DNA from: an uncultured Acidobacteriota bacterium
GTDB taxonomy: Bacteria; Acidobacteriota; Terriglobia; Acidiferrales; UBA7541
Assembly (NCBI GenBank): GCA_963718785.1
Contig: CAVQZW010000007.1
Coordinates: 3,303 to 67,302, forward strand
DNA: 64,000 nucleotides
Reading direction: 5' to 3'
Shown: one piece after another, positions 15,989-50,286 of the stretch
How the letters are laid out: each line of letters starts with the position of its first letter
Position numbering within the stretch: the stretch's first letter is position 1
Notes under the pieces: model-generated
Told to the model about the DNA's origin: nothing
Databases searched by the model: none
Seen by the model: only the letters and a program-made list of their open reading frames with translations
Program-made: the position numbers and the translations under genes

Positions 15989-17203
15989 TCAGGCAATTTT
16001 CTGAACGCCCGTTTTCGATGGGGCGGTCTCCGTCATAAAAAGTGAAGCAAGCAAGACGAGGATCGCGCCGCCGCTGGCAATCCAGAGCGGCGCTGCGAGT
16101 CCGTAGCGATCGGAGACGGCGCCAGCTAAGGCTGGGGCGAGCGCGCCGCCGACAATCTCTCCCACAAGGGTCGCAAGCCCAATGGCCGTGGCGGCAAATT
16201 TTGCGGGGACGCTTTCCGTCGGGACCAGCACCAGAACAAGCGGGGCGAGTCCCTGCCCGCCATTGGCGAAAAATCCAGCAGCGGCCATGAGCCACGGGTG
16301 CGCAATCAAAAACGGCACTTGGTAAATCAGCGGAGCCGCCGAAGAAATCAGCGCCACAAAAAGCAGTGTAGGTTTTCGTCCGGCGCGATCGGAAATCCAC
16401 GGAAAGATCCAACCCCACATAAACGCGCCAAGCCCACCGGCGCCGATGATGAAGCCTGCGGTTGTCGCGGAGCGCTTGGACACCTCCGTGATGTACAGCG
16501 GCGCGAATGCGTGCATCACAAAGAGCCAGGTCATGAAGCCTGCGCCGGCAATGCAGCACAGCAGCATGTTGCGATACCGCAGAAGCGAAAAATAATCGCT
16601 GAGCGCGGGCTTGGCGTGGTGCAGCTCGCCGGATTCGGGCTCTTTGACGAAACTCCAAATCAGGAGGCCGAGAATGAGTCCAGGCATCCCTACCACGACA
16701 AAAGCAGAGCGCCATCCGAACCGCGCAGCGATTTGAGTGGTCAGGATTGGTGCAAGCGCCAGCCCTGCGAGCGCACTCGCGCTAACAACAATGCCAATGT
16801 TACGTCCGCGGTTCTTTGGCTCGGAAGACGCTTCGATCATCGAAGTCATTGCGGGCCAGGCTGGACCCTGAGCTGCGCCCATTAGAGTGCGCACAAAAAG
16901 CAGCGAAGTGAAAGTGTGAGCGACGCCAGACAACCAGGAAAACACAGAAAACAAAAAGACGCTTGGAATCAAAACCGGGCGGCGCCCAACGCGATCCGAA
17001 ACAACGCCAAAAATCAGGCCGGAGGCAGCCCAGGCAATCGCCAAGGCCGATGCAAGCAATCCGACCTGCGCATGGCTGAGATGAAGATCCGGCGCGATGA
17101 ACGGCGCCAAATATACGACGCTCATGCGCGCCAGAAACACGCTGCCCCATGTAAAGAAAAAAAGAACAACCAGGCCGGTTTGATAGCGCTTTGTAGTTGG
17201 CAA
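15989..17203 (-). CDS. MFS transporter (aromatic acid/anion symporter-like)
   Basis: About 12 TM segments; motif A GVVSDRVGRR; downstream of pobA in the same orientation. Confidence 0.9.
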   Translation of the reverse strand: MPTTKRYQTGLVVLFFFTWGSVFLARMSVVYLAPFIAPDLHLSHAQVGLLASALAIAWAASGLIFGVVSDRVGRRPVLIPSVFLFSVFSWLSGVAHTFTSLLFVRTLMGAAQGPAWPAMTSMIEASSEPKNRGRNIGIVVSASALAGLALAPILTTQIAARFGWRSAFVVVGMPGLILGLLIWSFVKEPESGELHHAKPALSDYFSLLRYRNMLLCCIAGAGFMTWLFVMHAFAPLYITEVSKRSATTAGFIIGAGGLGAFMWGWIFPWISDRAGRKPTLLFVALISSAAPLIYQVPFLIAHPWLMAAAGFFANGGQGLAPLVLVLVPTESVPAKFAATAIGLATLVGEIVGGALAPALAGAVSDRYGLAAPLWIASGGAILVLLASLFMTETAPSKTGVQKIA

Positions 17204-17237
17204 GCCTTTTTCCCCTCCCGTGTTGCGGCCGAACGAC

Positions 17238-18422
<1,185 letters not shown>

Positions 18423-18451
18423 TCAATGCGCTAAGACGCCACTGAAGTGGT

Positions 18452-18832
18452 TCACGGCTGGTGCTGAGAAAAAACTTCCATCGCAATATGGAACGCCGAA
18501 TTTGCCGCAGGCAGGCCACAGTAGATCGCAGTTTGCAGAAGAACCTCTTTTATCTGTTCCCGCGTGACTCCGACGTTTAATGCCGCGCGCAAATGCATAC
18601 GGAGTTCGTCCGGCCGATTCAGCGCAACCATCATGCCTAGCGTAAGCATGCTCCGCGTCTCTTTTGCCAGGCCCGGCCTGCTCCAGATCTCTCCCCAGGC
18701 ATAACGCGTGATGAAATCCTGAAATGCTTCCGTGAATTCATTGCGATTCGTCAGCGTAGCGTCCACGTGCGCGTCTCCCAGGACGGCGCGCCGCGTCTTC
18801 ATTCCCTGCTCGTAGCGCTGGCTTTCATCCAT
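18452..18832 (-). CDS. pcaC: 4-carboxymuconolactone decarboxylase
   Basis: YEQGMKTRRAVLGDAHVD, FQDFITRYAWGEIWSRPGL, AIYCGLPAAN; GGAGG before ATG 18832. Confidence 0.93.
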   Translation of the reverse strand: MDESQRYEQGMKTRRAVLGDAHVDATLTNRNEFTEAFQDFITRYAWGEIWSRPGLAKETRSMLTLGMMVALNRPDELRMHLRAALNVGVTREQIKEVLLQTAIYCGLPAANSAFHIAMEVFSQHQP

Positions 18833-19138
18833 TTGAATACCTCCCGGAACTTCGCGAGATCCATTGGCTTCTACCATGAAGCCATCGCAATCCCAAATCG
18901 AATCGAAAAAGACCGCGGCCAGAAATCGTGCGTATTATCGCGGTCCCGCGTAGCCTCAACAATACACAAAAACGGGAAGACAAAATTGGCCACGCGCGAT
19001 AATCGGAGCTTTTGTAAAAATTCGACGCACGGGCCGCTGAAGAAATCGATGTCCGCGAGAATTCGGGCTGCAAACCCGGCCGCGATGGTATAACTTCGGT
19101 CTTTGTGACGCGAAGTGGCACGAGCAGGGAGAGACACG

Positions 19139-20755
19139 TTGAGCACGGTCCGGGAAGTCACCTATCAGGTTTTGCGCGACTTGGGGATGCATCTGATCTT
19201 CGGCAACCCCGGTTCGACCGAATTGCCTTTTCTGCGCGACATGCCGCCCGACTTTCAGTACGTTCTCGCCTTGCACGAACGCACGGCAATCGGCATGGCT
19301 CTGGGATATGCGATGGGCAGAGGCAAGGCTGCGTTCGTCAACGTGCATTCCGTTGCAAGTGTTGGCAACGGTCTCTCGGGACTGATCGACGCGTTTCATT
19401 GCCATGCGCCCCTGGTTGTAACGACAGGCCAGCAGGATCGCCGCCAGGTTCTTGCCGAACCATTTCTTGTGAGCCGCGCAGTGGAAACCGTCAAGCCCTA
19501 CGTGAAGTGGGCTTATGAGCCCTTGCGCGCGGAAGATGTGCCAGCCGTGATCGCCCGCGGATACTACCTCGCCATGCAGCCTCCCATGGGACCGGTGTTT
19601 ATCTCGATTCCGATGGATGACTGGACGCGCGAATGCCAAAGTTTGACCGTGCGCGAAGTATCGCAAGTCGTTGAACCCGATTCCTCGGCTCTCGATGAAG
19701 TGGTTCGCGCGCTCAATGCCAGCCGCAAAGTCGCGCTAGTGGTCGGAGCGCAAGTGGAAGAAGACCACGGTTGGCACGAAACGGTCGCGCTTGCCGAGCA
19801 CCTCAACGCCGACGTGTATCAGCAGCCTATTCCTTCACGCTGGACTTTTCCGCGAACGCATCGCCTGTTTTGCGGCGGCCTGCTCCCCGCGCAGCAACCG
19901 CTCGCCGATCAGTTGGCGGATTATGACACCGTCGTTGTCCTGGGCGCCCCTGTTTTTCTCTACTACGCTTATGTTCCCGGCCATACGATCAAGCCTGGCA
20001 CCAAACTTTTTCAAATCACGAATTCACCGCAAGATGCGGCGGCGGCATTGGCCGGAACCAGCATCGTCGGCAATCTTGCCGCGGCAGCGCGTTATCTTCG
20101 TCTACATGCCGAGCCGCGAGAGCAAGTTCATGGGCGGGATCGGAAAGATCCTGCGCCGCCTGGACCCGGCTACCCCATCACTGCAGCTTTTCTATTTAGC
20201 GTGCTTAACAAAGTCATGCCGCGAAATGCGGTGATTGCCGAAGAGTGTCCATCTTCCAAAGGCGATCTCGATCGTCAGCTGTTGCTGGACGAGCCTGGCT
20301 CATTCTATTCCGTTCCAAATGGCATCTTGGGATTTGGCCTTCCGACCGCCGTCGGCCTGCAACTCGCCCATCCAGACAGGAGAGTGGTCTGTCCAGTGGG
20401 TGACGGCTCCATCCAATATTCCATCCAGGCGCTGTGGAGCGCCGTTCAATACAAAGCCCCTGTCATTTTTATTGTTCTGCGCAACGGTGACTATACGGCG
20501 CTGAAATCCTTCTGCGATTTCACCCAGGTGGGCCGCAATGTTCCCGGTATGGAGTTACCCGGCATCGACATGGTGAAAATTGCGCAGGGATACGGAATGG
20601 CGGCGAAGGAGGTCGATCAGCCTGGCGAACTCGAAGCAGCGTTGCGTGAAGCTTTTGCTTCGCATGAGCCGCGCCTTATCAGCGTCAATATCGCGAAAGG
20701 CGGGCAGACGTGTATGGGCATGGATCAGTCCGTACATCCGCCGAACTACGGATGA
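19139..20755 (+). CDS. mdlC: ThDP-dependent benzoylformate decarboxylase
   Basis: IFGNPGSTELPFL, LALHE, NVHSVASVGN, TTGQQ, GDGSIQYSIQALW...NGDYTALK. Confidence 0.9.
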   Translation: MSTVREVTYQVLRDLGMHLIFGNPGSTELPFLRDMPPDFQYVLALHERTAIGMALGYAMGRGKAAFVNVHSVASVGNGLSGLIDAFHCHAPLVVTTGQQDRRQVLAEPFLVSRAVETVKPYVKWAYEPLRAEDVPAVIARGYYLAMQPPMGPVFISIPMDDWTRECQSLTVREVSQVVEPDSSALDEVVRALNASRKVALVVGAQVEEDHGWHETVALAEHLNADVYQQPIPSRWTFPRTHRLFCGGLLPAQQPLADQLADYDTVVVLGAPVFLYYAYVPGHTIKPGTKLFQITNSPQDAAAALAGTSIVGNLAAAARYLRLHAEPREQVHGRDRKDPAPPGPGYPITAAFLFSVLNKVMPRNAVIAEECPSSKGDLDRQLLLDEPGSFYSVPNGILGFGLPTAVGLQLAHPDRRVVCPVGDGSIQYSIQALWSAVQYKAPVIFIVLRNGDYTALKSFCDFTQVGRNVPGMELPGIDMVKIAQGYGMAAKEVDQPGELEAALREAFASHEPRLISVNIAKGGQTCMGMDQSVHPPNYG

Positions 20756-20853
20756 GAACAGCAGCCCTTTGCCTGCATTTCCTGTGACAAAGCTGAGTCC
20801 GGCAAGGAGGGAACGAGAGATATCCCCCGCTCCACCCTGTCGTCTTTGAGTTT

Positions 20854-23800
20854 CTAGAAAGAGTACTTCAAAGAAATCTGCAATTGCCGCGGGTTAAACA
20901 TCGTTCTCGGCGCCCCGAAGCTTGGATTCGGGAACGGTGGGCCGGCCGCTGGACAGCTTCCGATGAAAGAATCCGGGTTCGTTTGGATACTGAGAGAAGC
21001 GGCATCCTTATAATGTGTCGGCACCTTTCCGCCACAGAAATTGTAGGTGCCGTACACGGAAGTTACCTCGTTCACGTTGGGCCGGTTGAAAACGTCAAAA
21101 GCGTCCACGGCTACGTCTATCCTGTGCCTCTCGCGGAAAATGAAGTGCTGCGTGATCCGCAAGTCCACTGTCTGCAGGCTATCGCCCCAGTAGGTATTGC
21201 GGGCCGCTAACCCCGTTCGATCCGTTACCGGATTGGTATCGCCGTTCGCGTCAAATCCCACAAAGTCGGTAAATGGGCGCCCGCCTTGTACAGTGACAAT
21301 GCCGCTCAAGTCGGTGTTCCGCAGGAAGGTCTTCTTAGGTCCGGTCGCCGTGAAGTTTGCCACGAAGCGATTGCGAACATCTTGATTGGAATTGGCCCGC
21401 TCCGCCGCACGGTCGTAAAGATTCTGCGGAGTGCTCACAAATGTCGTAAACGTTCCGTCATCCAATGTCTTCGAAAACGTGTAGTTAGCGTTGAGCCGGA
21501 AATACTCTCCGACCTTCTGAGTGAGGGATACAGTTGCTCCATGATAGACACTGTTTCCGCTGTTATCTGTGTAATAGATCAAGCCGACTGGGGCGAGAAC
21601 GCCGCTGAAGTTGGCCTTTCCGGCGGGATAACCAGGTAGCGGCGCAGGCGACGGCGTGCATGTGTACAATCCTGTCGTTGCACCTGTTGTAGGGCAGACG
21701 TTCAGGTTTTCCGCCCGTACCTGATGGTGAGCCGAAACAAACAGATAGCCAATATTCACGACCAGTCCCTTTCCAATTTCCCGATCGATTTCAAGGCTGG
21801 CCTGCTCGGAATAGGGAATCTTACTTTGAGTCTCCACGGTGCCATTGCCTACCGGAGAAACCTCGCCAGCCGCTAGATTGGTAATCATTTGGACCGGCTG
21901 ATAGGTACCAAACCGCACCAGGTTCGCGGCAGCATCAGCTGGTTCGATTCCAAAGGGGGTTGGCCCCGGAACAAAAGGAAGCTGACTCAAAGAGTAAGTC
22001 CCGTTGTACCCCCCCTGGCGGACGCCCGGAAAGGGGTACGTCGACGTGCAAGCCGGATCCAGGCAATACGTCACCGCGCGCTGCGGGAAAGTCACGAAGA
22101 GGAAGGAAAGATTATAGCGATCATCGAAGATGCCGAATCCGGCGCGAATGACCGTGTGCTTGTCTGGAGAATACGCCAGTCCAACGCGCGGCTGAACGCC
22201 CTTATAGTTGGGCTGGATTTGCCTGTATAGCCCCCTCTCAAAGTCGTACCGCAACCCATAATTGAGAGTCAGCTTTGGAGTAAGGCGCCACTGATCTTGC
22301 GCGTAAAATCCGTAGTAGCTATGGATGATATTGGAAAAATAATTGGGTGTCGCGGAAGCGGGGTACGCGCTAAGCCAATTGGTGTCCACCGGCGGAGGAA
22401 GAGTTCCATTGATTGCGGAATTGTCTGCCGTTCCGAGCGGGGATGGCCAGAAGACAACCGGAACACCGTTCTGCGCGTCTGCCGGGTTAGGCCCCGGAGT
22501 AACCGGAAAAGGAGGAAGCGTGGCATTTTGTGGCCCAAGAGCAAGCGGACACGGCCCCTCCGCAAAATTTGAAGCCAGGTACGGCTGCGGCTGCCCCTTG
22601 AGCTGATCCACATAATTGGCAAAATCCACGAGACAGTTGATACCGGGCAACACGATGCGCATCGGAGAAAATCCCGGCCAAATGATGTGATCGTTGACGT
22701 GGTTGTAGTCCACGCCGAACTTGATCAAATGCGAGCCTTTCACCCAATAAACAGAATCCGCGAACTGCCCCCGGCTCTCATAAGTGGCATCGAAAACGCC
22801 AAAATTGTGTCCAATCAAAAGCGAATTTGGCAGATCCAGATTGGGCTGTCCGGTTACACCGGGGAAGTTCGAATGCCGCCGCGCGTATTGACCCAGGAAT
22901 GTATTAACAAGGTCAGGCTTAATTTGAGAGGATAACGTCCCTACCAGGGACTGGTCGCGCAAAAAATTGTTGTGGCCGCTACTAGGCGCTCCAATTCCTC
23001 CGCCGTCGAGTGTGTCGCCAACCAGTACGTTTAAGTTTCGGGCATCCTCTATGTTGTAACGCACGGAAAGGCGATTGTTGTTGTTTATCTGGTGATCGAC
23101 TTTAATGAGCCCTTTGTCGGTGTCTTGCGTTTTAAGGGCGCCAATATTTTCATTAAATTGGCCTGGCGCACCCCCCAAAAGAATTGCTTTCGCCGAGTTT
23201 ATCAACGCCAGGTTGTTGAGCAGTTCGGGCGATTGGATTGGAGCCTCCGCGCGGCGCTGCCCTTCGTAGTTCATGAAGAAGAAGGTCTTGTCTTTTTTGA
23301 TTGGGCCGCCGAGCGTGCCCCCGAACTGATTTTGCCGAAGTGTTTTGGGTGCGCCAGGAGTCGTCGCCGTTGCCGCGGGCTGCAGCAGCGCGCGTGCATT
23401 CATCGCGTCGTTCTCGAGGTAGTCATAAACCGAACCATGCAGATCGTTTCCGCCAGACTTCGTGATGATGTTGACGATGCCGCCCATGGCTCGCCCTTGC
23501 TCCGCACCGAACCCGTTGTTAACAACGCGAAACTCGCTGACTGCTTCCTGAGAAGGAGTACTGCGCTGCGATCCGGTCGCCGTGTTAACTGTGTCCGCGC
23601 CATCGACCGTTACCAGGTTGCTGAGATCGCGCATCCCTCCAAACGAGATTCTTGTGACCTCGGCTTCCGTGATTGTGGACTGAAGGCTAGTGCGGCCCGT
23701 GGTCACTCCGGGTGTCAGAAGCGCGAAGTCCGTGAAAAGTCGGCCGCTGATCGGAAGTGACTGAATCTGGTTGGTGCTAATTACCTGGCTGATCTCGGTC

Positions 23801-24204
23801 CTGGTGGGCTCCACCGGCGGCGTCTCGGTCGTAACTATCACCTTCTCCGCGCTTTGCGCGACACTTACACTTACGTCAATCGTTGCGACTTGGCCGACTG
23901 TCAGCACGATTCCCGTTTGGGTGGACTTGGCAAACCCCGTGGCTTCCGTCGTCAATTCGTACCGGCCCGGCGGCAGGTTGGGGATAACGTAAAGTCCGTT
24001 GTCATTCGAAACCGCGGTATAGGTGCGGTTTGTTGCGAGTTCTTTCAGGGTGATCGTAGCTCTGGCGACCGACCCGCCGCTCGCGTCGCGAACAGTTCCA
24101 TTTAACTGGGCCGAACTGCTGCCGACTTGCGACACCGCCGGTTTTGCCCAGCCACAAAAAATCAGGATCCCAAGGACGGCCCAAACCGCAAAACTTCGCC
24201 TCAT
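20854..24204 (-). CDS. TonB-dependent receptor-like outer-membrane protein with N-terminal carboxypeptidase-regulatory-like domain
   Basis: Signal peptide; GTVRDASGG, EAVSEFRV, NIITKSGGNDLHGS, C-terminal PRQLQISLKYSF. Confidence 0.9.
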   Translation of the reverse strand: MRRSFAVWAVLGILIFCGWAKPAVSQVGSSSAQLNGTVRDASGGSVARATITLKELATNRTYTAVSNDNGLYVIPNLPPGRYELTTEATGFAKSTQTGIVLTVGQVATIDVSVSVAQSAEKVIVTTETPPVEPTRTEISQVISTNQIQSLPISGRLFTDFALLTPGVTTGRTSLQSTITEAEVTRISFGGMRDLSNLVTVDGADTVNTATGSQRSTPSQEAVSEFRVVNNGFGAEQGRAMGGIVNIITKSGGNDLHGSVYDYLENDAMNARALLQPAATATTPGAPKTLRQNQFGGTLGGPIKKDKTFFFMNYEGQRRAEAPIQSPELLNNLALINSAKAILLGGAPGQFNENIGALKTQDTDKGLIKVDHQINNNNRLSVRYNIEDARNLNVLVGDTLDGGGIGAPSSGHNNFLRDQSLVGTLSSQIKPDLVNTFLGQYARRHSNFPGVTGQPNLDLPNSLLIGHNFGVFDATYESRGQFADSVYWVKGSHLIKFGVDYNHVNDHIIWPGFSPMRIVLPGINCLVDFANYVDQLKGQPQPYLASNFAEGPCPLALGPQNATLPPFPVTPGPNPADAQNGVPVVFWPSPLGTADNSAINGTLPPPVDTNWLSAYPASATPNYFSNIIHSYYGFYAQDQWRLTPKLTLNYGLRYDFERGLYRQIQPNYKGVQPRVGLAYSPDKHTVIRAGFGIFDDRYNLSFLFVTFPQRAVTYCLDPACTSTYPFPGVRQGGYNGTYSLSQLPFVPGPTPFGIEPADAAANLVRFGTYQPVQMITNLAAGEVSPVGNGTVETQSKIPYSEQASLEIDREIGKGLVVNIGYLFVSAHHQVRAENLNVCPTTGATTGLYTCTPSPAPLPGYPAGKANFSGVLAPVGLIYYTDNSGNSVYHGATVSLTQKVGEYFRLNANYTFSKTLDDGTFTTFVSTPQNLYDRAAERANSNQDVRNRFVANFTATGPKKTFLRNTDLSGIVTVQGGRPFTDFVGFDANGDTNPVTDRTGLAARNTYWGDSLQTVDLRITQHFIFRERHRIDVAVDAFDVFNRPNVNEVTSVYGTYNFCGGKVPTHYKDAASLSIQTNPDSFIGSCPAAGPPFPNPSFGAPRTMFNPRQLQISLKYSF

Positions 24205-25436: not shown

Positions 25437-25517
25437 GCGAATCCCCCTGGAAACGAGCATCGAAAAAGCCGATGCAGGCGAAGAGAATACACTTTTTTGA
25501 CCGATATGCGCCCAATA

Positions 25518-25532
25518 TTTCGATAATCGGTA
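25518..25532. promoter_or_regulatory. PcaR-type operator candidate TTTCGATAATCGGTA
   Basis: CGATAATCG core between divergent pcaR and pcaH; the same core recurs at 18997-19005. Confidence 0.6.
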
Positions 25533-25643
25533 TTGCGGGAATTTGGCAGGAGCCATAGAATGCCCGGCGCGGCCGAAATTCGGACAGGTCTCATAATGAA
25601 CCGCACGATAACGCCATTAATGGGTTCAAGGGGGGCAGAACGT

Positions 25644-26935: not shown

Positions 26936-26941
26936 TGGCTC

Positions 26942-31958: not shown

Positions 31959-31991
31959 TTCATATTGTGAAACATAGTTTCACAATATGAA
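31959..31991. promoter_or_regulatory. Perfect 15-bp-arm inverted repeat, probable IclR operator
   Basis: TTCATATTGTGAAAC-ATA-GTTTCACAATATGAA between the divergent IclR and vanA genes. Confidence 0.7.
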
Positions 31992-41913: not shown

Positions 41914-43393
41914 TAGCTGCCTCGCGCTCTGGCGAACTGCGCAGCTCCAAACGGAAATCGCGTTTTTCAATGACGATATGGGAAGCCTTGGGGCGGATCT
42001 GCAGTCCGCGCAGTAGTTTGAAAACGGGCTGCATGTCCGGATTGTAATGCCGACGCGCGGGGCCGGCGACCAGCATCGCGTCCACTTCTTGCGCAGGCAT
42101 CGCCGCGCGCAGTAAGAACTCATCGTCAGAAATTCCGGGCGCGAACTGCTTGCGCAATTCTTCTGGCGGTAACGGCAGCGGTTCGGCCGCCAACTCTTTG
42201 GCACGCGGGCGATTGAGAATGAGGTCCTTCACGTTCTCATCCACTGGGACGGTGGGGCGGCCGAATCTTCCGAGCACGTAGCGGATCACTTGGTCGGAAA
42301 CGTTGCCATAGCGCTCGGAACCGATGATGTTATAAAGCGCCTGCGTGCAAACGATCTGCGGGAACGGCGTGACCATGATCGGGTAACCAAGCTCGGCGCG
42401 AACCTGGACGACTTCGCGCATGACATCGGCAAATCTGTTTTCAAAGCCCAGTTCGGCAAGCTGGCGACGCGTCGTGGTCAAAACGCCGCCGGCGACCTGG
42501 TGGCGCAGGAACGAGGCATCGTATTCTTGCGGCGTACCCGCCGGGAGATTCTCCGCTTCTGTCAGCCGCGCGAAGTAGTCGGCGACCTTCGCGAGTGCGC
42601 GATCGTCGACGTTGACTGTGTGGCCCAGCTCACGCAGATTTGCCACCACTCTCTGTGCATTGGGGAGCGAAGATCCGTTCGCCAGCGGGCCACAGGCGAC
42701 TTGCAAGACTTCCACACCGAGCTCCGCCGCAACCATATAGCTAATGGGCGAAAGGCCAATCGTACAATGCGAATGAAGTTCCAGGGGCTTTGCGCCCAGT
42801 TGCGCACGAACTGCGGGAATCAGAGTGCGCGCGCGCTCGGGCCTCAGCAGCCCTGACGGGTCCTTTATATAAGCACGATCGACGTGCGGTGATTTCGCCA
42901 CTCGCGCGGCAAGCTTAGCGTAGAACCCGTCGTCGTGCACGTCGCTGATGGTATATGTCAGGGCCGCGATAATCTCCGTGGCGCCAGCTTTTCGAATCAT
43001 CCGCGCGGACTCGAGCAAAGCTTCGACATCATGCATTGGATCAAGAACGACAAATCGCGAGATCCCATTGGCGACCAGCCGGTCATAGACGATCTGCATG
43101 AAATCGGGATGCTGGCCTTCCCAAGAGATGAAGCGGAGTCCAGTGCCAATGAACTGCAGCGGCGTATTGGGCATCGCAGAGCGCGCCAGGCGAATGCGTT
43201 CCCAAGGATTTTCCTTGTGCGTTCGCACGGCAACGCCCATGTGCGTGCTCGATGTAAAGTCCAGCGCGCGGAATCCCACACGATCCATCACGGGAGCAAT
43301 CGCCAGGATTTGCGAGGTTGTAAATCCAATCGCCCCCCACAAACTCTGGTTGCCGTCCCGTATTGAAACATCGAGAAGTTGAATGTCCGCCAT
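41906..43393 (-). CDS. Carboxyltransferase subunit, PycB/OadA-like, without a biotinyl domain (HpeA/AcvE-equivalent)
   Basis: DVSIRDGNQSL, YIKDPSG, HSHCT, YPIMVTPFPQIV. Confidence 0.88.
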   Translation of the reverse strand: MADIQLLDVSIRDGNQSLWGAIGFTTSQILAIAPVMDRVGFRALDFTSSTHMGVAVRTHKENPWERIRLARSAMPNTPLQFIGTGLRFISWEGQHPDFMQIVYDRLVANGISRFVVLDPMHDVEALLESARMIRKAGATEIIAALTYTISDVHDDGFYAKLAARVAKSPHVDRAYIKDPSGLLRPERARTLIPAVRAQLGAKPLELHSHCTIGLSPISYMVAAELGVEVLQVACGPLANGSSLPNAQRVVANLRELGHTVNVDDRALAKVADYFARLTEAENLPAGTPQEYDASFLRHQVAGGVLTTTRRQLAELGFENRFADVMREVVQVRAELGYPIMVTPFPQIVCTQALYNIIGSERYGNVSDQVIRYVLGRFGRPTVPVDENVKDLILNRPRAKELAAEPLPLPPEELRKQFAPGISDDEFLLRAAMPAQEVDAMLVAGPARRHYNPDMQPVFKLLRGLQIRPKASHIVIEKRDFRLELRSSPEREAASA

Positions 43394-43429
43394 TTCAGTC
43401 CGTGGCACCAAGCGCTTTATTCCGTGTTC

Positions 43430-44788
43430 TCACGCTGCCCCCATATTTCTATTCTGGAGGAATTGCCCCAGGAAAGCAGTGTTCATACCGCCGCGAGCAA
43501 ATTCGCTTTCCCGCATCAACTCGGCATGCATCAGCAGATTTGTGGAGACACCTATGATCTCCATGTTTGCAAGAGCTTGACGCATTTTGCGAAGCGATTC
43601 TTTCCGGTCCGCGCCATGAATGATCAGCTTGCCCAGGAGCGAGTCGTAAAAAGGAGGCACTTTCGAACCCGCTTGGATGTGCGTGTCCATGCGAATTCCC
43701 TGTCCTGCTGGAAAAACGGCATGCGTCACCGTACCGGGGCTCGGACAAAAATCATGTTCCCAGTCTTCCGCGTTGATGCGGCACTCGATGGCGTGGCCGG
43801 AGAACTTCAGTTCATCCTGCTTCCAGCGCAGCTTGCGGCCCTCGGCGACGGCGATCTGCTCCTCCACGAGATCCAGACCACAAATCGCCTCCGTAACAGG
43901 GTGCTCGACTTGGATTCGTGCGTTCATTTCCAAAAAATAAAATGCGTCGCGATCGCAATCCACGAGAAATTCCACAGTGCCCATTCCCCGGTATTTCAGG
44001 TGTCTCGCGAAGGCAACAGCCGCGAGATGCATCTCCTCGCGAAGAGTTTCGCTGATATTCGGGGCCGGCGCTTCTTCCACAAGTTTTTGGTAGCGCCGCT
44101 GAACTGAGCAGTCGCGCGTGCCGAGGTGAATCACATTTTCGCCGTCGCCAAGCACTTGCACTTCGATGTGGCGGCCATGCGAGATAAAGCGCTCGACGTA
44201 TAGACGCGGATCGCCGAAGCTTGCCAGTGCTTCCGCTGTCGCCAATTCCATCGCCTCAGCTAGCTTGCCGGCGTCAGTTACTTGTTTCATGCCGCGGCCG
44301 CCGCCACCGCCAACGGCCTTAATCAGGATTGGCCAGCCAATCTTGTCGGCAAGCTGCCGCGCTTCAACGAGGCTCCGCACTTCGCCGCCGGGAACGCCAT
44401 GTAGTCCCGCGGCAGTGGCGTGCGCACGGGCTTTAAGTTTGTCGCCAACGGCATCGAGCTGCTCGACCGTAGGACCGATGAAGAAGATCCCAGCATGGTT
44501 GCATGCGGAGGCGAATCTTTGATTCTCGGAAAGAAAACCGTACCCGGGATGAATCGCATCGGCCTTGCTCGCCACAGCGGCGGCGACGATTGCTTCCACG
44601 TTTAAGTAGCTGGCAGCGGAATTTGCCGGACCTATGCAAATCGTGCTGTCAGCCAGTCTCGCCCCCATGGAATCCAGATCCGCTTCGGATGCAGCCAGTA
44701 CAGTTTCAATGCCGAGGGTCTGGCAAGTTCGAATCACGCGCACGGCGATTTCGCCGCGATTGGCGATCAGGATGCGCCGCAGCGTCAT
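43430..44788 (-). CDS. accC: Biotin carboxylase subunit (HpeB/AcvD-equivalent)
   Basis: LIANRGEIAVR, HPGYGFLSEN, GGGGRGM, EMNARIQVEHPVTE, YDSLLGKLI. Confidence 0.95.
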   Translation of the reverse strand: MTLRRILIANRGEIAVRVIRTCQTLGIETVLAASEADLDSMGARLADSTICIGPANSAASYLNVEAIVAAAVASKADAIHPGYGFLSENQRFASACNHAGIFFIGPTVEQLDAVGDKLKARAHATAAGLHGVPGGEVRSLVEARQLADKIGWPILIKAVGGGGGRGMKQVTDAGKLAEAMELATAEALASFGDPRLYVERFISHGRHIEVQVLGDGENVIHLGTRDCSVQRRYQKLVEEAPAPNISETLREEMHLAAVAFARHLKYRGMGTVEFLVDCDRDAFYFLEMNARIQVEHPVTEAICGLDLVEEQIAVAEGRKLRWKQDELKFSGHAIECRINAEDWEHDFCPSPGTVTHAVFPAGQGIRMDTHIQAGSKVPPFYDSLLGKLIIHGADRKESLRKMRQALANMEIIGVSTNLLMHAELMRESEFARGGMNTAFLGQFLQNRNMGAA

Positions 44789-45282
44789 GCGACTCCCGGC
44801 TTGATGCGCATCAATACTGCATCCTTCTCGGCAAACTGCGCGTTGTCGCAGCAAATCTCGACGACTTCGCCGCACGTTTCTGCGTGAACCGCGTTCATCA
44901 GTTTCATCGTCTCGATGATGCCTACGACTGTGTCCGCTTCCACCTGACTCCCGATTTCAACGAACGGAAGAGCCCCCGGCTTTGGTGCGCGATAAAACGT
45001 GCCCGGAAGGTGTGCGCGAACGTCCGTCCACACAACGTCGCGTGGGTCTCGTGGAGCTTTCGCAGCCGATGGAGCGGCGCTGTTCAGAACGGCGGACAAA
45101 TCAGGCGAGCCCTGCACTACATTCGGCGCCGAGAGCACTTGAGTTTCCTGAGTCCAGTCTCCGCTGGCGAGGTTGCGGCGTAGCGTCAGCTTGAAGCGCT
45201 CGGTTTCCAGATGCAGCTCATCATATTTCGCAGCGTCGAGCAGTTGCAGAATCTGCTGCACATCCTCGTTGGTTAACTTCAT
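44785..45282 (-). CDS. accB: Biotin carboxyl carrier protein (HpeC/AcvC-equivalent)
   Basis: GTFYRAPKPGA; IIETMKLM biotinylation motif. Confidence 0.93.
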   Translation of the reverse strand: MKLTNEDVQQILQLLDAAKYDELHLETERFKLTLRRNLASGDWTQETQVLSAPNVVQGSPDLSAVLNSAAPSAAKAPRDPRDVVWTDVRAHLPGTFYRAPKPGALPFVEIGSQVEADTVVGIIETMKLMNAVHAETCGEVVEICCDNAQFAEKDAVLMRIKPGVA

Positions 45283-46364
45283 TTTTTTCCGGCTCCTCCG
45301 CTGAGGAGCGAAAACACATGATCGAATGGTTTGCCTTTAGGCGCGGCCACCGGCGCCGCATCCTTTGCTGCCCAAACCGTTTCCGGCCGGCTCTGCAACA
45401 GAAACACATTTTCGCTTGGCGGACAATTCCGCGCGATGGCCCACTCGATATCTTGTGGGCAGCCATAATGACGCTCGACCCGCTTCGCAATGTCAACGAG
45501 GCTGTGGAGCTCGTCGTCGCTAAGGCATGGAGCGTTTTGCTTCTCAACCGGGACTTCTTCGTCGATCACTCCTGCGCCCGCCGCGTTGGGCCGGTGCTGG
45601 CGCAACTTGCATGACACCGTGCGGCTCATAATCTCGCCAGTAATCTTCCCGACGACATATTTGTCAGGCGTGACTTCCCCACTGACAACAGCCGAGCCCA
45701 ACCCCCAGCTTGCCTCCACCACCACGACGGAACGATCACCCGTGTTCGGGCTTCGCGTGAATATCACTCCAGAGCAGCGCGAGTCGATCATGCGCTGAAT
45801 CACCACTCCCATCGCCAAACCCTGTTCGGGCAACTTCAATCTCCGTCGGTACATCACCGACTCCACCGCGTACAAACTTGCCCAGCATTTGCGCACGTGT
45901 TCGATGACAGAATCAGCGCCGCGCACCCAGAGGTACGTGTCTTGCAGTCCAGCGAAACTCGCATCGGCGCTGTCCTCGCTCGTTGCGCTCGAGCGAATAG
46001 CAACCGGCTCACCCGGCCCGTCGTTGCCGGCACGTGTTTGAAGTTCTTCATAGTGCGCGCTTATATTCGTTTGCAAATCCTCGGGCAATGCCGCGCTTTC
46101 GAGTCGTACCCTCACTTCAACTCCGACGCGCGAGCAAGCAGCGTGATCATCTGGCGCCAATTGTTCGATTTCGCGCCGTATCGAGCCAGCGGGATCAATG
46201 GCCGTCAAGAACCGCTCAAAGGCCGCCGTCGTCACTACACACCCAGGCGGCACGCGAATGCCCGCGCGGGCCAATTCTCCGAGACTGGCGCCTTTGCCGC
46301 CGACGGTCGGCCGGTCAGCAATGCCGATTTCCTCGAAGCGGCTTATGAGATTATGACTCGTCAA
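45279..46364 (-). CDS. Stand-alone PEP/pyruvate-binding ATP-grasp subunit, phenylphosphate synthase beta-like (HpeI/AcvB-equivalent)
   Basis: VGGKGASLGEL, AIRSSATSEDSADASFAG, PQDIEWAI, LLQSRPET; no swivel or pyruvate domain. Confidence 0.88.
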   Translation of the reverse strand: MTSHNLISRFEEIGIADRPTVGGKGASLGELARAGIRVPPGCVVTTAAFERFLTAIDPAGSIRREIEQLAPDDHAACSRVGVEVRVRLESAALPEDLQTNISAHYEELQTRAGNDGPGEPVAIRSSATSEDSADASFAGLQDTYLWVRGADSVIEHVRKCWASLYAVESVMYRRRLKLPEQGLAMGVVIQRMIDSRCSGVIFTRSPNTGDRSVVVVEASWGLGSAVVSGEVTPDKYVVGKITGEIMSRTVSCKLRQHRPNAAGAGVIDEEVPVEKQNAPCLSDDELHSLVDIAKRVERHYGCPQDIEWAIARNCPPSENVFLLQSRPETVWAAKDAAPVAAPKGKPFDHVFSLLSGGAGKK

Positions 46365-46376
46365 ATCGATCCTCTC

Positions 46377-48200
46377 TTAATCCAGAATCCACACGATCCC
46401 GCGGTTTCCATCCACTCGAAGCCGTTGCCCCGTCTTAATGCGCTGCGTGGCTTGGCCAGTACCGACCACGGCAGGCAATCCATATTCGCGCGCGACGATC
46501 GCAGCGTGAGACATTGTCCCGCCAATGTCGGAGACTGCCGCCTTTATTTTGCCGAAGACCGGCCCCCAACTCGGCGCGGTCACGGGACAAACCAAAATTT
46601 CGCCTTCGCGAATCTGCCCGATCTCGTTCACGTTTTTAAGCACGCGCGCAATGCCTTCCACGACGCCGGGTGACGCTGCAAATCCGACAATTTCATTTTC
46701 ATGTCCGGCTTCTACCGTCGCCGACCAGGATTCCAAGGTCTCCGAAGTGATTCCCCAAAGCATCTGTAAAGCAGGGTCGTTGATCTGCGGAGGAATCGGC
46801 CCCAGAGCTGGCGGCGGGTTCCATTCCTTCAACCTCTCGACGATACATTTGCGCGCTTCCACAATCGGACGCCAGTGAGCAGCGCCAAGTGGTTTGCCGC
46901 CGCCCGCCCACGCAAGACTCACGTCGGCCAGCGCGCGCTCGACCTCGACGTACTGCAAATGAAACACGTCGCTCGCATCGGCCAGCACTCCATAAGTAAC
47001 CAGCAACGCGCCGAATTCCTTCACTTTCTTGAAGAAAAGGCTCGTGAACCAATGCTCGCAATAAAATTTGTGGTTCTCCACGAACGGAAAGACGAGGTGA
47101 GATAGGCCGAGCATCTGATCGAACGCCTGCCGCTCCTCTTCGCTCATCAGCAACTCACGATACTCGGCGATGATGCGCCCGCGTTCTTCTTTCAGCCGTT
47201 CCGTGGGGCGTTCCAGGGATTCGCCGCGCCGCAACTGTTCCACATAGCGTGGCAAAGCCGCGAACGGAACAGACAGATCGTCATTCCAGCTCAAGTGATG
47301 GTGATAGAAACCATCTCCCGTGGACATGTTGAACCACGGCTCGCGCGACTTATCGAGTTCAGTCAGCCACCGCTTGCCGGCATCCCCACGGCCACCCAGC
47401 TCATGCAGCACCTTTTTCGCATCGCAATCGGCAGTAAACAAATCGTCCACACCAAACTCAATGGCTAATTTCGCCAGGCGCTTAAGCTCGTCGTCCGGCC
47501 GGAACATCAGCACGTCGATGCCGGCCACCATTCGCGCCACCGTCTGATCTGCCGTCTCCGGGAAAGCTTTCTTGCAAAAATCGAAAAACACCATGTAGGC
47601 GCCATAACCCAGCATCAACATTTCGAAATGGTGGTGCCACATTTTGGAGAACAACTCGATCGTGCGGTGAAAATTCTCGCGGATGTAATGGTTTTGGCCC
47701 AGCCCCTTCGCCTTCGTCACCACTTCCGCTTCATCGAACTCCGGCAACATCGGCACCTTGATCGCTTCGAGTTCGTGGATCAGATTCTCCATGCGAACTT
47801 TCCACTCGCCGAATATCCGGTTCCAATTCTCGTAGTAGTAGCCGGCCCGCTCCTGGAAAATCGCAAGCCGCCGCTGAATCTCCGCCGGATCGGTAACCGG
47901 GTTCGCCGTAATGTAAATGCGGCCGTTGACGATACGGTGCTCAATGCCCATCGTCGTCGGGAACACAAAAATGCGCGTCGTAAACGCGCCGAGTGCCTCG
48001 TAAGGAATCTCCGCTGTCAGCGCATCGAACGCTGGCATCGGCTCGGGAAAGTGCATCGCGTTATAAAACCAGAAGCGCTGATCATCTTCGGGCTGAAACC
48101 GCGTGTAATACGGATACATCGACTGCCAGCCCTCCGTGCCCGGTACATCGGCTATTTGGGAAGGCAACGTAAAGCTGCGGCTCTTGCTATCAACGCCCAT
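46377..48200 (-). CDS. Substrate-binding + phosphohistidine swivel subunit, phenylphosphate synthase alpha-like (HpeH/AcvA-equivalent)
   Basis: C-terminal GFAASPGVVEG...DIGGTMSHAAIVAREYGLPAVVG; N-terminal WFYNAMHFPEP. Confidence 0.88.
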   Translation of the reverse strand: MGVDSKSRSFTLPSQIADVPGTEGWQSMYPYYTRFQPEDDQRFWFYNAMHFPEPMPAFDALTAEIPYEALGAFTTRIFVFPTTMGIEHRIVNGRIYITANPVTDPAEIQRRLAIFQERAGYYYENWNRIFGEWKVRMENLIHELEAIKVPMLPEFDEAEVVTKAKGLGQNHYIRENFHRTIELFSKMWHHHFEMLMLGYGAYMVFFDFCKKAFPETADQTVARMVAGIDVLMFRPDDELKRLAKLAIEFGVDDLFTADCDAKKVLHELGGRGDAGKRWLTELDKSREPWFNMSTGDGFYHHHLSWNDDLSVPFAALPRYVEQLRRGESLERPTERLKEERGRIIAEYRELLMSEEERQAFDQMLGLSHLVFPFVENHKFYCEHWFTSLFFKKVKEFGALLVTYGVLADASDVFHLQYVEVERALADVSLAWAGGGKPLGAAHWRPIVEARKCIVERLKEWNPPPALGPIPPQINDPALQMLWGITSETLESWSATVEAGHENEIVGFAASPGVVEGIARVLKNVNEIGQIREGEILVCPVTAPSWGPVFGKIKAAVSDIGGTMSHAAIVAREYGLPAVVGTGQATQRIKTGQRLRVDGNRGIVWILD

Positions 48201-50286
48201 CGTTTCTCTCCAAAACCGACACCTCGCCGCCAACACTGGCCAACGATGGATTTGCGGCAAGCGAATAGTCCTTTTGCGCCTTCGCGTAATTCACAAAAAA
48301 TTCGAGCGAGTCCGGATTGGCCATGGCATTGCGGTTGGCGGCTCGTTCTAGCGGCACGCCCATCAAAATCTTGCGCACCGGTACTTCCATTTTCTTGCGC
48401 GTGAGCGTCATGGGAATTCCCGGCGCTTGGATGATCCGGTCCGGCACATGCCGCGCCGTATATTCGTGCCTGAGCCGCTCGCAGATTTTCTGCTCAAGCT
48501 CCGCACTTAACTGGATCCCGTCCATTAGCTTTACAAATAGCGGCATAAAGAACTTGCCGCCCGGCAAATCGAGATTCACAACCAATGCGTCTTCGACTTC
48601 ATGGACGTGCGCAATGGCCCGGTAAATTTCCGCGGTGCCGATACGCACTCCCAGACGGTTCAGCGTCGCATCCGATCTTCCCAGCACGAAGCAACCGCCG
48701 CGCTCGTTGACGCGGAAGAAATCGCCATGCCTCCACACCCCGGGATAGACATCGAAATAAGATTCGCGATAACGCGATCCATCCTTGTCTCCCCAAAAGT
48801 AGATGGGCATCGAAGGCAAAGGCTCGGTTAGCACGAGTTCCCCCACCTCGTCTACCACGCTCTCGCCCTTCTCGTTGAACGCATACGCCGCCACACCCAG
48901 CGAGCGCCCCTGTATCTCCCCTGCATACACGGGCTGCGTCGGCACGCCGCCAACAAACCCGGTGCAGCAATCCGTACCGCCACTGCCCGTTGCAACCAGC
49001 AAATCCTGTTTTACGTTCCGATAGAACCACGCCGTGCACTCTGGCGACACCGGCGAACCCGCGGGCATGACCGCTCGAAGATGCGACAAATCGAACCTCT
49101 CACGCGGAACGATGCCAGCCTTGGCCATTACTTCGACGTACGCTGGACTCGCGCCGAAGAAACTCGCCTTCGAATCCTGAGCGACCTTCCAGAGCACATC
49201 CGGCGCCGGATAAGCGGGGTTCCCGTCGTACAGAACCGGGCACACACCGCTCAGCGGCATGCTCGCCAGAAAATTCCACATCATCCATCCCGAAGTCGTG
49301 AAGAAAAACGCGCGCTCCCCCGCGCGGTAGTCCATATGAAAATGCTGCAGCTTGAGTTGTTCCAACAAAATGCCGCCGTGACTCTGCACAATCGCCTTCG
49401 GCAAACCGGTCGTGCCCGAAGAAAACAGCACCCACAGCGGGTGGCCAAACGGGACCTGGTCGAAGTGGAATTCCTCGCGCGAAACGCCGGCATGTTCCAT
49501 CAAATCGTTCCAACGCAGCGCCCCCTCGCGCGGAAACGTGTGATCCTCGGCATTCAAATAGGGCACGTGGACGACATGTTCGAGACCATCCAGCGCCGCA
49601 ATGATTTCTCCGAGCTCCTCTTTTCGGTCGAATGCCTTTCCGCCGTATCTGTAGCCGTCGACGCAGAAAAGTACTTTCGGCGAAAGCTGTTGTATCCGGT
49701 CGATCACACCGCTCGAACCAAAGTCCGGCGAGCAACACGCCCAGATTGCGCCAATCGCAGTCGTGGCCAGCATCGCGATCATTGTCTGAGGAATATTCGG
49801 CATGAACGCCACGACCCGGTCGCCGGGCCGCACACCCAATTCGCGCAGCCGCGTCGCCAAAATACGTACATGTCCGCCAAACGCTTCCCACGGCAAGCCG
49901 GTCAGCGGCGCAGTCTCACTCATGAACAAAAGCGCGTCGGTGCCCGCCCGCTCGTTTCGTAGAACGTGTTGCGCATAGTTGAGCCGCGCGCCAGGAAACC
50001 ATTCCGCCCCCGGCATCTCGCGCTTGCCCAGCACACGAGTGTGCGGCGCGGACGACTCAATGCCGAAGTAGTCCCAAATCGCCTGCCAAAATTCTTCCAA
50101 TTCGGTGACGGACCAACGCCACAGCGAGTCGTAATTTGCGAAATACAATCCCCTCTCGCGCACCAGCCACTTCGCAAACCGCGTTAAGTTTGCATCTTCA
50201 ATCTGGGCGGCACTCGGCGTCCAGAGTAGTTCGCCTTCGCGAACGCCACGAGTCCCCGCCAGTATCTCGGCTGCGCTCTTCGTCAT
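48190..50286 (-). CDS. Acetoacetate-CoA ligase-family acyl-CoA synthetase (HpeE-equivalent by position)
   Basis: FPGARLNYA, LFSSGTTGLPK, TTSGWMMWNF, SGGTD, WRHGD, GRSDATLN, KKMEVPV. Confidence 0.92.
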   Translation of the reverse strand: MTKSAAEILAGTRGVREGELLWTPSAAQIEDANLTRFAKWLVRERGLYFANYDSLWRWSVTELEEFWQAIWDYFGIESSAPHTRVLGKREMPGAEWFPGARLNYAQHVLRNERAGTDALLFMSETAPLTGLPWEAFGGHVRILATRLRELGVRPGDRVVAFMPNIPQTMIAMLATTAIGAIWACCSPDFGSSGVIDRIQQLSPKVLFCVDGYRYGGKAFDRKEELGEIIAALDGLEHVVHVPYLNAEDHTFPREGALRWNDLMEHAGVSREEFHFDQVPFGHPLWVLFSSGTTGLPKAIVQSHGGILLEQLKLQHFHMDYRAGERAFFFTTSGWMMWNFLASMPLSGVCPVLYDGNPAYPAPDVLWKVAQDSKASFFGASPAYVEVMAKAGIVPRERFDLSHLRAVMPAGSPVSPECTAWFYRNVKQDLLVATGSGGTDCCTGFVGGVPTQPVYAGEIQGRSLGVAAYAFNEKGESVVDEVGELVLTEPLPSMPIYFWGDKDGSRYRESYFDVYPGVWRHGDFFRVNERGGCFVLGRSDATLNRLGVRIGTAEIYRAIAHVHEVEDALVVNLDLPGGKFFMPLFVKLMDGIQLSAELEQKICERLRHEYTARHVPDRIIQAPGIPMTLTRKKMEVPVRKILMGVPLERAANRNAMANPDSLEFFVNYAKAQKDYSLAANPSLASVGGEVSVLERNDGR

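Follow-up and report, generated by a model that had tools for sequence, protein, structure and literature searches.

The Hpe pathway for 4-hydroxyphenyl ketones was described in 2022, and growth on its substrates has been documented for four strains (PMC13101465). In Rhodococcus rhodochrous GD02, it is encoded by the operon hpeHICBADEF: HpeHI phosphorylates 4-hydroxyacetophenone and acetovanillone, HpeCBA carboxylates the phosphorylated ketone only, the NagD-like HpeD dephosphorylates the product, and HpeE (AcsA2-like) and HpeF (CouO-like, 95% identical to CouO) are proposed to remove acetyl-CoA, yielding 4-hydroxybenzoate or vanillate (PMC9618137). CouO is an amidohydrolase-superfamily enzyme. 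For the HpeH-type dikinase, a swivel motif T/SxxGGxxxH has been defined (PMC12167813). Here, we describe an operon of the Hpe type in a 64,000-nt stretch of DNA (the window; positions 3303-67302 of contig C7, CAVQZW010000007.1) from an uncultured Acidobacteriota bacterium (GCA_963718785.1), in which a block at window positions 15989-50286 joins it to genes for 4-hydroxybenzoate hydroxylation and protocatechuate cleavage.

The locus resembles that of GD02 in that the same eight functions are united in one operon (PMC9618137), and in GD02, too, pobA and protocatechuate genes are present in the same genome. The differences concern gene order (E-H-I-C-A-B-D-F in the window vs. H-I-C-B-A-D-E-F in GD02), the acidobacterial host, the physical linkage of the operon to pobA, pcaHG, pcaC, a pyrroloquinoline quinone (PQQ)-dependent alcohol dehydrogenase (ADH) gene and transporter genes, and the lack of a vanAB pair. 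In Sphingobium sp. SYK-6, acvABCDEF and vceAB serve the catabolism of acetovanillone and acetosyringone, with vanilloyl acetic acid as the product (bioRxiv 10.1101/2022.04.28.489975); this acid also arises from beta-hydroxypropiovanillone via the glucose-methanol-choline (GMC) oxidase HpvZ and aldehyde dehydrogenases (ALDHs). By described chemistry, not by sequence, both systems comprise a kinase, a biotin carboxylase and a phosphatase, together with a GMC enzyme and an ALDH. Their last steps differ, as SYK-6 employs the non-homologous VceA and VceB and 4,5-cleavage of protocatechuate, whereas the window encodes an HpeE/HpeF-type pair and 3,4-cleavage. The p-ethylphenol/4-hydroxyacetophenone cluster of Aromatoleum aromaticum EbN1 contains an acetoacetyl-CoA-synthetase-like ligase, AcsA, and a thiolase. 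It shares with the window this type of ligase, a biotin-dependent XccABC-type carboxylase (cited in PMC9618137) and an alcohol dehydrogenase step before the ketone. However, EbN1 degrades the compounds anaerobically, with thiolysis to 4-hydroxybenzoyl-CoA as the final step, whereas the window provides a hydrolase-type last enzyme, PobA and oxygenolytic cleavage. Finally, the protocatechuate branch of the beta-ketoadipate pathway is represented by PobA, PcaH, PcaG, PcaC, PcaB, PcaD, PcaF and an IclR regulator of the PcaR/PobR family, all above curated cut-offs; unlike the classical pcaHGBCDIJF arrangement, these genes are split over at least three loci in the genome.

We conclude that the block probably represents a chromosomal catabolic supercluster of a Candidatus Acidoferrum subclade which, as read from its genes, would lead 4-hydroxyphenyl-type (H-type) aromatics to protocatechuate and intradiol ring opening. 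Every enzyme family involved is known and the central module is that of the Hpe/Acv pathway, found here in a new host without new chemistry. New are the complete eight-gene set with a CouO-type hydrolase in Acidobacteriota and its fixed linkage to pobA, pcaHGC and the gene of an exported quinohaemoprotein ADH throughout a clade within a soil genus that is abundant but uncultured. A literature search found no paper on Hpe or such a cluster in this phylum.

The window's own genome (G000) is a 6.04-Mb metagenome-assembled genome (MAG) of 11 contigs with 56-57% GC, 91.4% completeness and 0.25% contamination. Twenty-six genes were identified in the block from the list of open reading frames (ORFs) and from Pfam and NCBIfam profile searches, with curated NCBIfam cut-offs separating equivalog or subfamily calls from domain- or family-level calls; gene content, family membership, catalytic motifs, synteny and taxonomy are direct observations. 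Calls at the domain or family level only apply to three major facilitator superfamily (MFS) transporters, the TonB-type receptor, the ALDH, the GMC pair, the VanA_C/Rieske oxygenase and the regulator IclR2; the PQQ-ADH with its cytochrome c domain is also listed at this level, as are the genes for kinase, carboxylase, phosphatase and amidohydrolase. The enzyme inventory of a first-pass annotation, made by a model from the letters of the DNA, was upheld for nearly all components at the family or equivalog level and in position; a MetE-like gene had not been listed there. The genes of the Hpe-like operon are, in order of transcription (scores are followed by the model's cut-off):

48190..50286, minus strand: HpeE-type AMP-forming beta-ketoacid-CoA ligase of the acetoacetate-CoA ligase family, first operon gene (TIGR01217, 806 > 521; SGTTGLPK motif)
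46377..48200 (longest ORF to 48260), minus strand: HpeH-type substrate-binding/swivel component of the aryl dikinase, 607 aa (NF006153, 821 > 578; PEP-utilizers domain)
45279..46364, minus strand: HpeI-type ATP-grasp component of the aryl dikinase (Pfam PPDK_N, 1.1e-103)
44785..45282, minus strand: biotin carboxyl carrier protein, HpeC/XccB type (Pfam Biotin_lipoyl; TMKL biotinylation motif)
43430..44788, likely start M30, minus strand: biotin carboxylase subunit, HpeA/XccA type (CPSase_L_D2, Biotin_carb_N, Biotin_carb_C; NF006367, 614 > 597)
41906..43411, minus strand: carboxyltransferase subunit, HpeB/XccC type (Pfam PYC_OADA and HMGL-like; NF006761, 297 bits, below cut-off)
41035..42204, true start probably near 41913, minus strand: HpeD-type HAD-IIA phosphatase (Hydrolase_6 and Hydrolase_like; DMDGT motif)
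40157..41038, minus strand: HpeF/CouO-type amidohydrolase-superfamily protein, last operon gene (Amidohydro_2, 1.4e-50; 86-96% identity in acidobacterial loci)

The eight minus-strand genes follow the order hpeE-H-I-C-A-B-D-F, and by the ORF list and a reading of the N-termini neighbors overlap or are separated by 20 nt at most. The two-component aryl dikinase, the three-part biotin carboxylase and the NagD-like HAD phosphatase that mark the Hpe/Acv systems are all present, as are the HpeE-type ligase and, at the superfamily level, the CouO-related amidohydrolase. The Hpe-like operon recognized in the first reading is therefore complete, from the CoA ligase through the two-part dikinase, carboxylase and phosphatase to the amidohydrolase, the latter being the proposed aryl-beta-ketoacyl-CoA hydrolase. 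The HpeH-type protein carries SDIGGTMSH, which matches the swivel motif, and its homologs are likewise 607 aa long, while the best Protein Data Bank (PDB) match of the HpeI-type protein is HpeI of R. rhodochrous GD02 (9GOJ, 5.3e-80, 44% identity). The phosphatase reached 87.7 with the HAD-IIA model TIGR01460, below the cut-off of 100.

Related loci were surveyed through the 80 best matches, which derive from Acidobacteriota, Actinomycetota and Proteobacteria. In these, the kinase is accompanied by the biotin carboxyl carrier protein, biotin carboxylase, carboxyltransferase and HAD phosphatase wherever the fetched DNA reaches far enough, and the ligase gene, often found there as well, usually comes first. 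Two acidobacterial kinase homologs with 46-48% identity have no carboxylase nearby and were rejected as not being of the Hpe type. A second, divergent hpe-like operon (H-I-C-A-B-D) was observed on a short contig of a congener (L015; G015:C206:1-8931); its HpeH and HpeI are 57 and 53% identical to those of the window, and the operon branches outside the main acidobacterial clade.

The block also encodes the entry into and first steps of the protocatechuate branch:

17238..18413, minus strand: PobA, 4-hydroxybenzoate 3-monooxygenase (TIGR02360 equivalog, 573.6 > 538.7)
18452..18877, minus strand: PcaC, 4-carboxymuconolactone decarboxylase (TIGR02425, 183 > 155.7; Pfam CMD)
25533..26369, likely start ~25644, plus strand: PcaH, protocatechuate 3,4-dioxygenase beta subunit (TIGR02422, 336.1 > 296.4)
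26261..26935, likely start ~26363, plus strand: PcaG, protocatechuate 3,4-dioxygenase alpha subunit (TIGR02423, 216.9 > 126.25)

Ring cleavage by PcaHG with PcaC, as initially annotated, thus stands for the block, but the pathway is incomplete there: pcaF, pcaB and pcaD form an operon outside the window on contig C9 (C9:147703-151423). PcaB (437 > 356) and PcaD (323 > 256) are encoded at C9:149.3-151.4 kb, and PcaF scored 662 against a cut-off of 597. In the assembly, pcaF and pcaB are read as one 977-aa frame, with the conserved PcaF C-terminus ...GRYALCTMCIGVGQGIAIILERV in another frame. Two pairs of A and B subunits pass the pcaI_scoA family model (C3:1715.2-1716.7 kb and C4:762.1-763.5 kb), neither of which adjoins pca genes. 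A further region, C4:757-774 kb, showed weak PcaI-, PcaD- and PcaB-like matches and was dismissed as an aromatic locus, as its ORFs appear by eye to encode fumarase, amidases and hydrolases. Taken together, the Hpe operon, PobA, PcaHG/PcaC, PcaB/D/F and the PcaI/ScoA pairs imply that an H-type route leading from 4-hydroxyacetophenone to central metabolism is, at the family level, fully encoded.

For substrates, the order of the feeding steps and regulation, we infer the following scheme. The HpeHI-type dikinase would phosphorylate the phenolic hydroxyl group of a 4-hydroxyphenyl methyl ketone, such as 4-hydroxyacetophenone and possibly acetovanillone, after which the biotin carboxylase would carboxylate the methyl group of the phospho-ketone and the HAD phosphatase would take off the phosphate. 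The acetoacetate-CoA-ligase-type enzyme would then thioesterify the resulting aryl-beta-ketopropionate, from which the CouO-type amidohydrolase may free acetyl-CoA and 4-hydroxybenzoate. PobA would convert the latter to protocatechuate for cleavage by PcaHG, with PcaC acting downstream, and PcaB, PcaD and PcaF from contig C9, together with a PcaIJ/ScoAB-type CoA transferase encoded elsewhere, would lead to succinyl-CoA and acetyl-CoA. As feeding reactions, the exported quinohaemoprotein ADH and an oxidoreductase of the medium-chain dehydrogenase/reductase (MDR) family might oxidize 1-aryl-ethanols to ketones, and benzoylformate decarboxylase and the aromatic ALDH might turn aryl-glyoxylates and aryl aldehydes into acids. 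Uptake would proceed through the TonB-type receptor and MFS carriers, and control would presumably lie with a PcaR/PobR-type IclR protein and a second IclR regulator with a conserved palindrome.

The relatives of the locus place it in the Acidobacteriota. The closest loci, with 79-96% HpeH identity, are found in MAGs of uncultured Acidobacteriota (Microflora Danica bins), Ca. Acidoferrum/Acidiferrum and Ca. Sulfotelmatobacter. In two congeners, G003 and G008, the cluster, its gene order and its right flank are syntenic with the window; this flank, consisting of genes for an FGGY kinase, an SSF symporter, an aldose epimerase, GH31, TPR and FG-GAP proteins, is common to all three genomes, and its FGGY/SSF part was found in at least ten further loci. 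In the HpeH tree, the 16 acidobacterial proteins form a single clade (support of 100 in the SH-like approximate likelihood ratio test), 52 proteins from Actinomycetota form another and the Proteobacteria are basal, a pattern that fits a single acquisition followed by vertical descent and loss. Judged by its nearest syntenic genomes, native flanks and HpeH clade, the host belongs to Ca. Acidoferrum (Acidobacteriota, Terriglobia), as had been predicted at the phylum level.

Linkage of ring cleavage to the Hpe genes recurs beyond the window: PcaH is encoded on the same contig as HpeH, at a distance of 10-22 kb, in 11 of 13 further acidobacterial MAGs. Together with the synteny in G003 and G008, this recurrence speaks against a chance grouping. 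G008 retains MFS1, PobA (82% identical), PcaC, the receptor, IclR1, PcaHG, ALDH, the MetE-like gene, IclR2, PQQ-ADH, the MDR oxidoreductase and the operon, and lacks MdlC, MFS2, the VanA-like gene, MFS3 and the GMC pair. G003 lacks PobA, the VanA-like gene and MFS2. In the G003 copy (L006-L009), MFS1, MdlC, ALDH, the MetE-like protein and MFS3 gave partial tblastn matches, pcaD is split in two and the PcaI frame contains an internal TGA; this gene damage suggests either an indel-rich assembly or pathway decay in that species. The survey of Acidobacteriota genomes proposed in the first-pass annotation found the cluster again in congeners and the Hpe kinase type in less than 1% of the sampled genomes. 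The window's HpeH type was present in two of 24 sampled congeners, one more carrying a divergent second type (57%) and one a fragment only, and in an even sample of 401 Acidobacteriota genomes it was detected in the window's own genome alone. PcaH passed its cut-off in 15 of these 401 genomes (~4%); the view of the phylum as usually polysaccharide specialists, from which the annotation had started, is therefore fair but not absolute.

The remaining genes of the block concern side-chain and other accessory reactions, transport and regulation:

15989..17203, minus strand: MFS transporter 1, adjoining pobA (MFS_1, 1.7e-50; TIGR00895, 106 bits, below cut-off)
19115..20755, plus strand: MdlC-type benzoylformate decarboxylase, a thiamine diphosphate enzyme, accessory module (NF005485, 615.8 > 493)
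20854..24204, minus strand: TonB-type outer-membrane receptor with signal peptide (OMP_b-brl_4, 2.6e-99; CarboxypepD_reg; TonB_dep_Rec_b-barrel)
24447..25556, minus strand: IclR1, PcaR/PcaU/PobR family, divergent from pcaHG (TIGR02431, 322.9 > 284.75)
27008..28429, minus strand: aromatic aldehyde dehydrogenase (Pfam Aldedh, 1.7e-160)
28628..29899, minus strand: MFS transporter 2, monocarboxylate/oxalate-formate type, accessory (MFS_1; NF049980, 170 bits, below cut-off)
29903..31003, minus strand: MetE-like protein of the cobalamin-independent methionine synthase II family, 365 aa (Meth_synt_2; NF005085, 256 bits, below the cut-off of 313)
30970..31878, minus strand: IclR2 regulator (IclR_C and HTH_IclR; 77-80% identical in G003 and G008)
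31959..31991: perfect 15-3-15 palindrome TTCATATTGTGAAAC-ATA-GTTTCACAATATGAA between iclR2 and the VanA-like gene (100% complementary)
32018..33052, plus strand: VanA-family Rieske oxygenase, O-demethylase type (VanA_C, 2.4e-50, and Rieske; CxH...CxxH motif)
33201..34481, plus strand: MFS transporter 3, downstream of the VanA-like gene (MFS_1, 1.1e-36)
34505..36649, minus strand: type II quinohaemoprotein (PQQ and haem c) alcohol dehydrogenase with cytochrome c domain (TIGR03075, 658 > 480)
36886..37440, plus strand: GMC dehydrogenase small subunit with twin-arginine (Tat) signal (LDRREILR followed by a hydrophobic stretch; 76% identical in G003)
37459..39027, plus strand: GMC flavoprotein dehydrogenase large subunit, accessory (Pfam GMC_oxred_N and GMC_oxred_C)
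39102..40103, plus strand: MDR-family quinone oxidoreductase/alcohol dehydrogenase-like protein (ADH_N and ADH_zinc_N; TIGR02824, 185 bits, below cut-off)

The PQQ-ADH matches PDB entry 1kv9 over its full length (1.2e-242); its longest ORF extends to 36778, with a likely start at M44 followed by a lipoprotein-like signal, and the gene recurs beside hpe genes in Steroidobacteraceae and Gammaproteobacteria. The MDR oxidoreductase gene always adjoins the hpe operon in this clade, with 75-93% identity in the Acidoferrum loci, and homologs with 58-62% identity occur at four Burkholderiales hpe loci. The best PDB relatives of the ALDH are salicylaldehyde, vanillin, 4-hydroxybenzaldehyde and benzaldehyde dehydrogenases (1e-110 to 1e-115), and that of the benzoylformate decarboxylase is 4q9d (5e-130); neither mdlA nor mdlB was seen within the window. 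The GMC small subunit matched no Pfam or NCBIfam model. The best PDB relative of the VanA-like protein is the dicamba O-demethylase DdmC (1.8e-56) and no equivalog model matched, so that the name VanA holds for the family and not beyond it. The MetE-like gene is flanked by iclR2, whose stop it overlaps by ~34 nt, and MFS2, and its place is conserved in G003 and G008; copies with 80-96% identity are abundant in soil/Acidoferrum-type metagenome contigs. A role of the highly conserved, genus-wide MetE-like protein as O-demethylase or thiol transferase was considered and found no support.

The uptake and control functions of the first reading (a TonB-type receptor, three MFS transporters and two IclR regulators) are present at the family level, the MFS carriers being assigned at the superfamily level only. 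MFS1 weakly resembles aromatic acid/H+ symporters and is conserved in G008 and partly in G003, and the receptor is 94% identical in G003 and 67% in G008. In IclR1, the helix-turn-helix begins at ORF residue 126, and the true start is probably downstream of that of the longest ORF. No NCBIfam model above its cut-off was found for IclR2. A palindrome related to that at 31959-31991, TTCATAATATGAA, lies ~100 bp upstream of iclR2 in G003 and G008, which makes the window's palindrome a candidate IclR2 operator. The operator TTCACCnGGTGAA, present upstream of hpeE in many actinobacterial loci, is absent at the window locus, where the sole match, with two mismatches and within pobA, is no better than expected by chance. 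Another perfect palindrome, GTGAACGTTCAC at 50493, was rejected as an hpe operator, since congeners have it next to the FGGY gene, 2.7 kb away from hpeE; it therefore belongs to the sugar-kinase side.

Several observations weigh against a dedicated lignin-monomer funnel. At 44% identity, the ATP-grasp component is about as distant from the characterized HpeI as HpeH, CreH and PpsA, ~45% identical to one another (PMC12167813), are among themselves, and the HpeI tree places the GD02 protein, on a long branch, outside the clade that unites the window's protein with 72 other homologs linked to a carboxylase; the substrate assignment is therefore drawn mainly from the gene context, which argues strongly for the Hpe call. 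The HpeF-like protein resembles CouO/HpeF at the superfamily level only, pcaF as assembled is shifted by one base close to its 3' end (at about C9:149,05x), through either an indel of the assembly or a genuine defect, and the pcaI_scoA model does not separate PcaIJ from ScoAB. In addition, the VanA-like gene is absent from both G003 and G008, and no VanB-type reductase (flavin, NAD and C-terminal plant-type 2Fe-2S domains, ~320 aa) was found in G000 by a motif scan of all ORFs and the Fer2 model, an absence that is unproven as the MAG is 91% complete. The clear Fer2 (PF00111) matches open CoxS-like frames of 164-186 aa, and the remaining ones are frames of 195, 254 and 748 aa; none of these is built like VanB. 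With no such reductase found and the VanA-like gene missing from two congeners, the guaiacyl (G-type) branch is unproven and the use of acetovanillone or vanillate is doubtful; of the locus for both H- and G-type compounds postulated earlier, the H-type route is fully encoded but the G-type part is not sustained. The distance of the kinase and the failure to find VanB would suit a general phenolic locus in which only the H-type branch works and whose Hpe-like module acts on phenolics other than lignin-derived hydroxyphenylethanones, for example acetophenones of plants or fungi (piceol among them), ketones derived from alkylphenols or some other phenolic ketone. The core conserved in G008, which has PobA without the VanA-like gene, points the same way, and the substrates of the GD02 HpeHI include 4-hydroxybenzaldehyde, vanillin and phenol as well (PMC12167813). 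We nevertheless regard this explanation as rather unlikely: the gene content is identical to that of the Hpe pathway, down to the ligase and the CouO-type hydrolase, the Hpe substrate 4-hydroxyacetophenone can arise from H-lignin, and the aromatic ALDH and benzoylformate decarboxylase suit lignin-type side chains.

The accessory genes raise the question of how much of the 34 kb belongs together. The GMC large subunit is nearest to the large subunits of fructose dehydrogenase and FAD-glucose dehydrogenase (PDB, ~3e-52), so that the aromatic side-chain oxidation once ascribed to the pair is not supported, and for the MetE-like gene, which is widespread and strongly conserved also outside hpe carriers, no aromatic role is evident. 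Conceivably, then, the block is a mosaic accreted in a variable region, with a functional Hpe-PobA-Pca core and, instead of a single coordinated funnel, a receptor, GMC pair, MetE-like gene, MFS2/3, VanA-like gene and MdlC serving unrelated, partly carbohydrate metabolism. The genes missing from G008 and G003 agree with this, as does the site, which borders sugar genes, insertion sequence (IS) elements and an island with a TOTE conflict system; the congener G012 shares the FGGY flank but not the cluster and carries a 90.7%-identical TOTE gene ~10 kb on, from which it follows that the site is variable. On the other hand, MdlC, ALDH and the VanA-like protein are aromatic-type enzymes, the GMC pair recurs adjoining hpe genes in Ca. 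Sulfotelmatobacter, and the receptor and IclR1 hold their place between pcaC and pcaHG in the window, G003 and G008, and we consider the mosaic quite improbable. Still more far-fetched is an assembly chimera, or a contaminant contig mis-binned into an acidobacterial MAG. The genome is a MAG, and the window does begin with a low-GC stretch (0.50-0.53 vs. 0.55-0.60) and two transposases, but the cluster and right flank recur in many Acidobacteriota/Ca. Acidoferrum MAGs on contigs of up to 6.6 Mb, the left flank of G003 corresponds to the last 30 kb of G000 contig C3, and the contig's GC content equals that of the genome, with its 0.25% contamination. Synteny of the cluster and of both its flanks in congeners shows that the contig is not chimeric, which removes the objection that the first-pass annotation had raised against itself.

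In addition to the preferred reading, a catabolic supercluster for H-type aromatics, we contemplated a two-compartment acidobacterial “aromatic utilization locus” with a shared HpeE/HpeF exit for two aryl-beta-keto-acid routes, which appears unlikely on present evidence. The lipoprotein-like signal of the ADH, the Tat signal of the GMC dehydrogenase and the signal peptide of the receptor suggest a periplasmic oxidation stage before MFS uptake. Under the two-compartment model, the TonB-type receptor would admit lignin-derived phenolics, the exported ADH and the Tat-exported GMC dehydrogenase would oxidize side-chain alcohols in the periplasm, and HpeE/HpeF would be fed both by hydroxyphenylethanone carboxylation and by GMC/ALDH oxidation of beta-hydroxypropiophenone (C6-C3) units. 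A second entry of this kind is conceivable, though unproven, because HpvZ and ALDHs of SYK-6 produce vanilloyl acetic acid. If the model were true, Ca. Acidoferrum, abundant and uncultured, would act in acidic soils as a real sink for aryl ketones derived from lignin, and the VanA-family demethylase would use an unrecognized electron donor.

For the preferred H-type supercluster, the Hpe-PobA-PcaHG combination in at least 14 acidobacterial species-level genomes offers a concrete route for a possible use of lignin or plant phenolic ketones, and the divergent Hpe enzyme variants become available for lignin valorization work. Acidobacteriota rank with the most abundant bacteria of soils and, to our knowledge, Ca. 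Acidoferrum has no cultured member. Discussion of the genus has centered on its part in iron cycling (PMC7980381).

Further observations concern the borders of the block. To its left lies the following feature:

13587..15721: left boundary, two overlapping transposase ORFs, DDE_Tnp_1 (minus strand) and IS3-type rve (plus strand) (Pfam)

A GC step occurs at ~12-14 kb of the window. Window positions 1-15721 form a low-GC (0.50-0.53) island with genes for a GGDEF-LuxR protein, a trypsin-like protease, a 714-aa TIG-repeat protein and a TOTE conflict-system AEP primase-helicase (10806-13481), followed by the two transposase ORFs (13587-15721). Since C3 ends in sequence that corresponds to the left flank of G003, the first 15.7 kb are, relative to G003, an island inserted between the C3 end and the cluster. 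On the right, G008 (L023:4964-7663) and several congeners carry two extra genes between FGGY and hpeE, encoding a Gfo/Idh/MocA oxidoreductase and a xylose-isomerase-like TIM-barrel protein, which are present neither in the window nor in L016. The xylulokinase-like FGGY gene itself (50612-52144, plus strand) lacks any ATG, GTG or TTG codon from an in-frame TAG (50612-50614) to the conserved N-terminus IPILGIDVGTSG, and an ATT at 50627 is preceded by a strong Shine-Dalgarno sequence (GAAGGGGGG). In nine congeneric loci (among L016-L023, L028, L030 and L115), the same codon is ATT or ATC behind AGGAGG, and the frame, as read in the window and L019, contains a stop shortly before this codon. The FGGY gene thus looks like a case of a conserved, non-canonical start codon.

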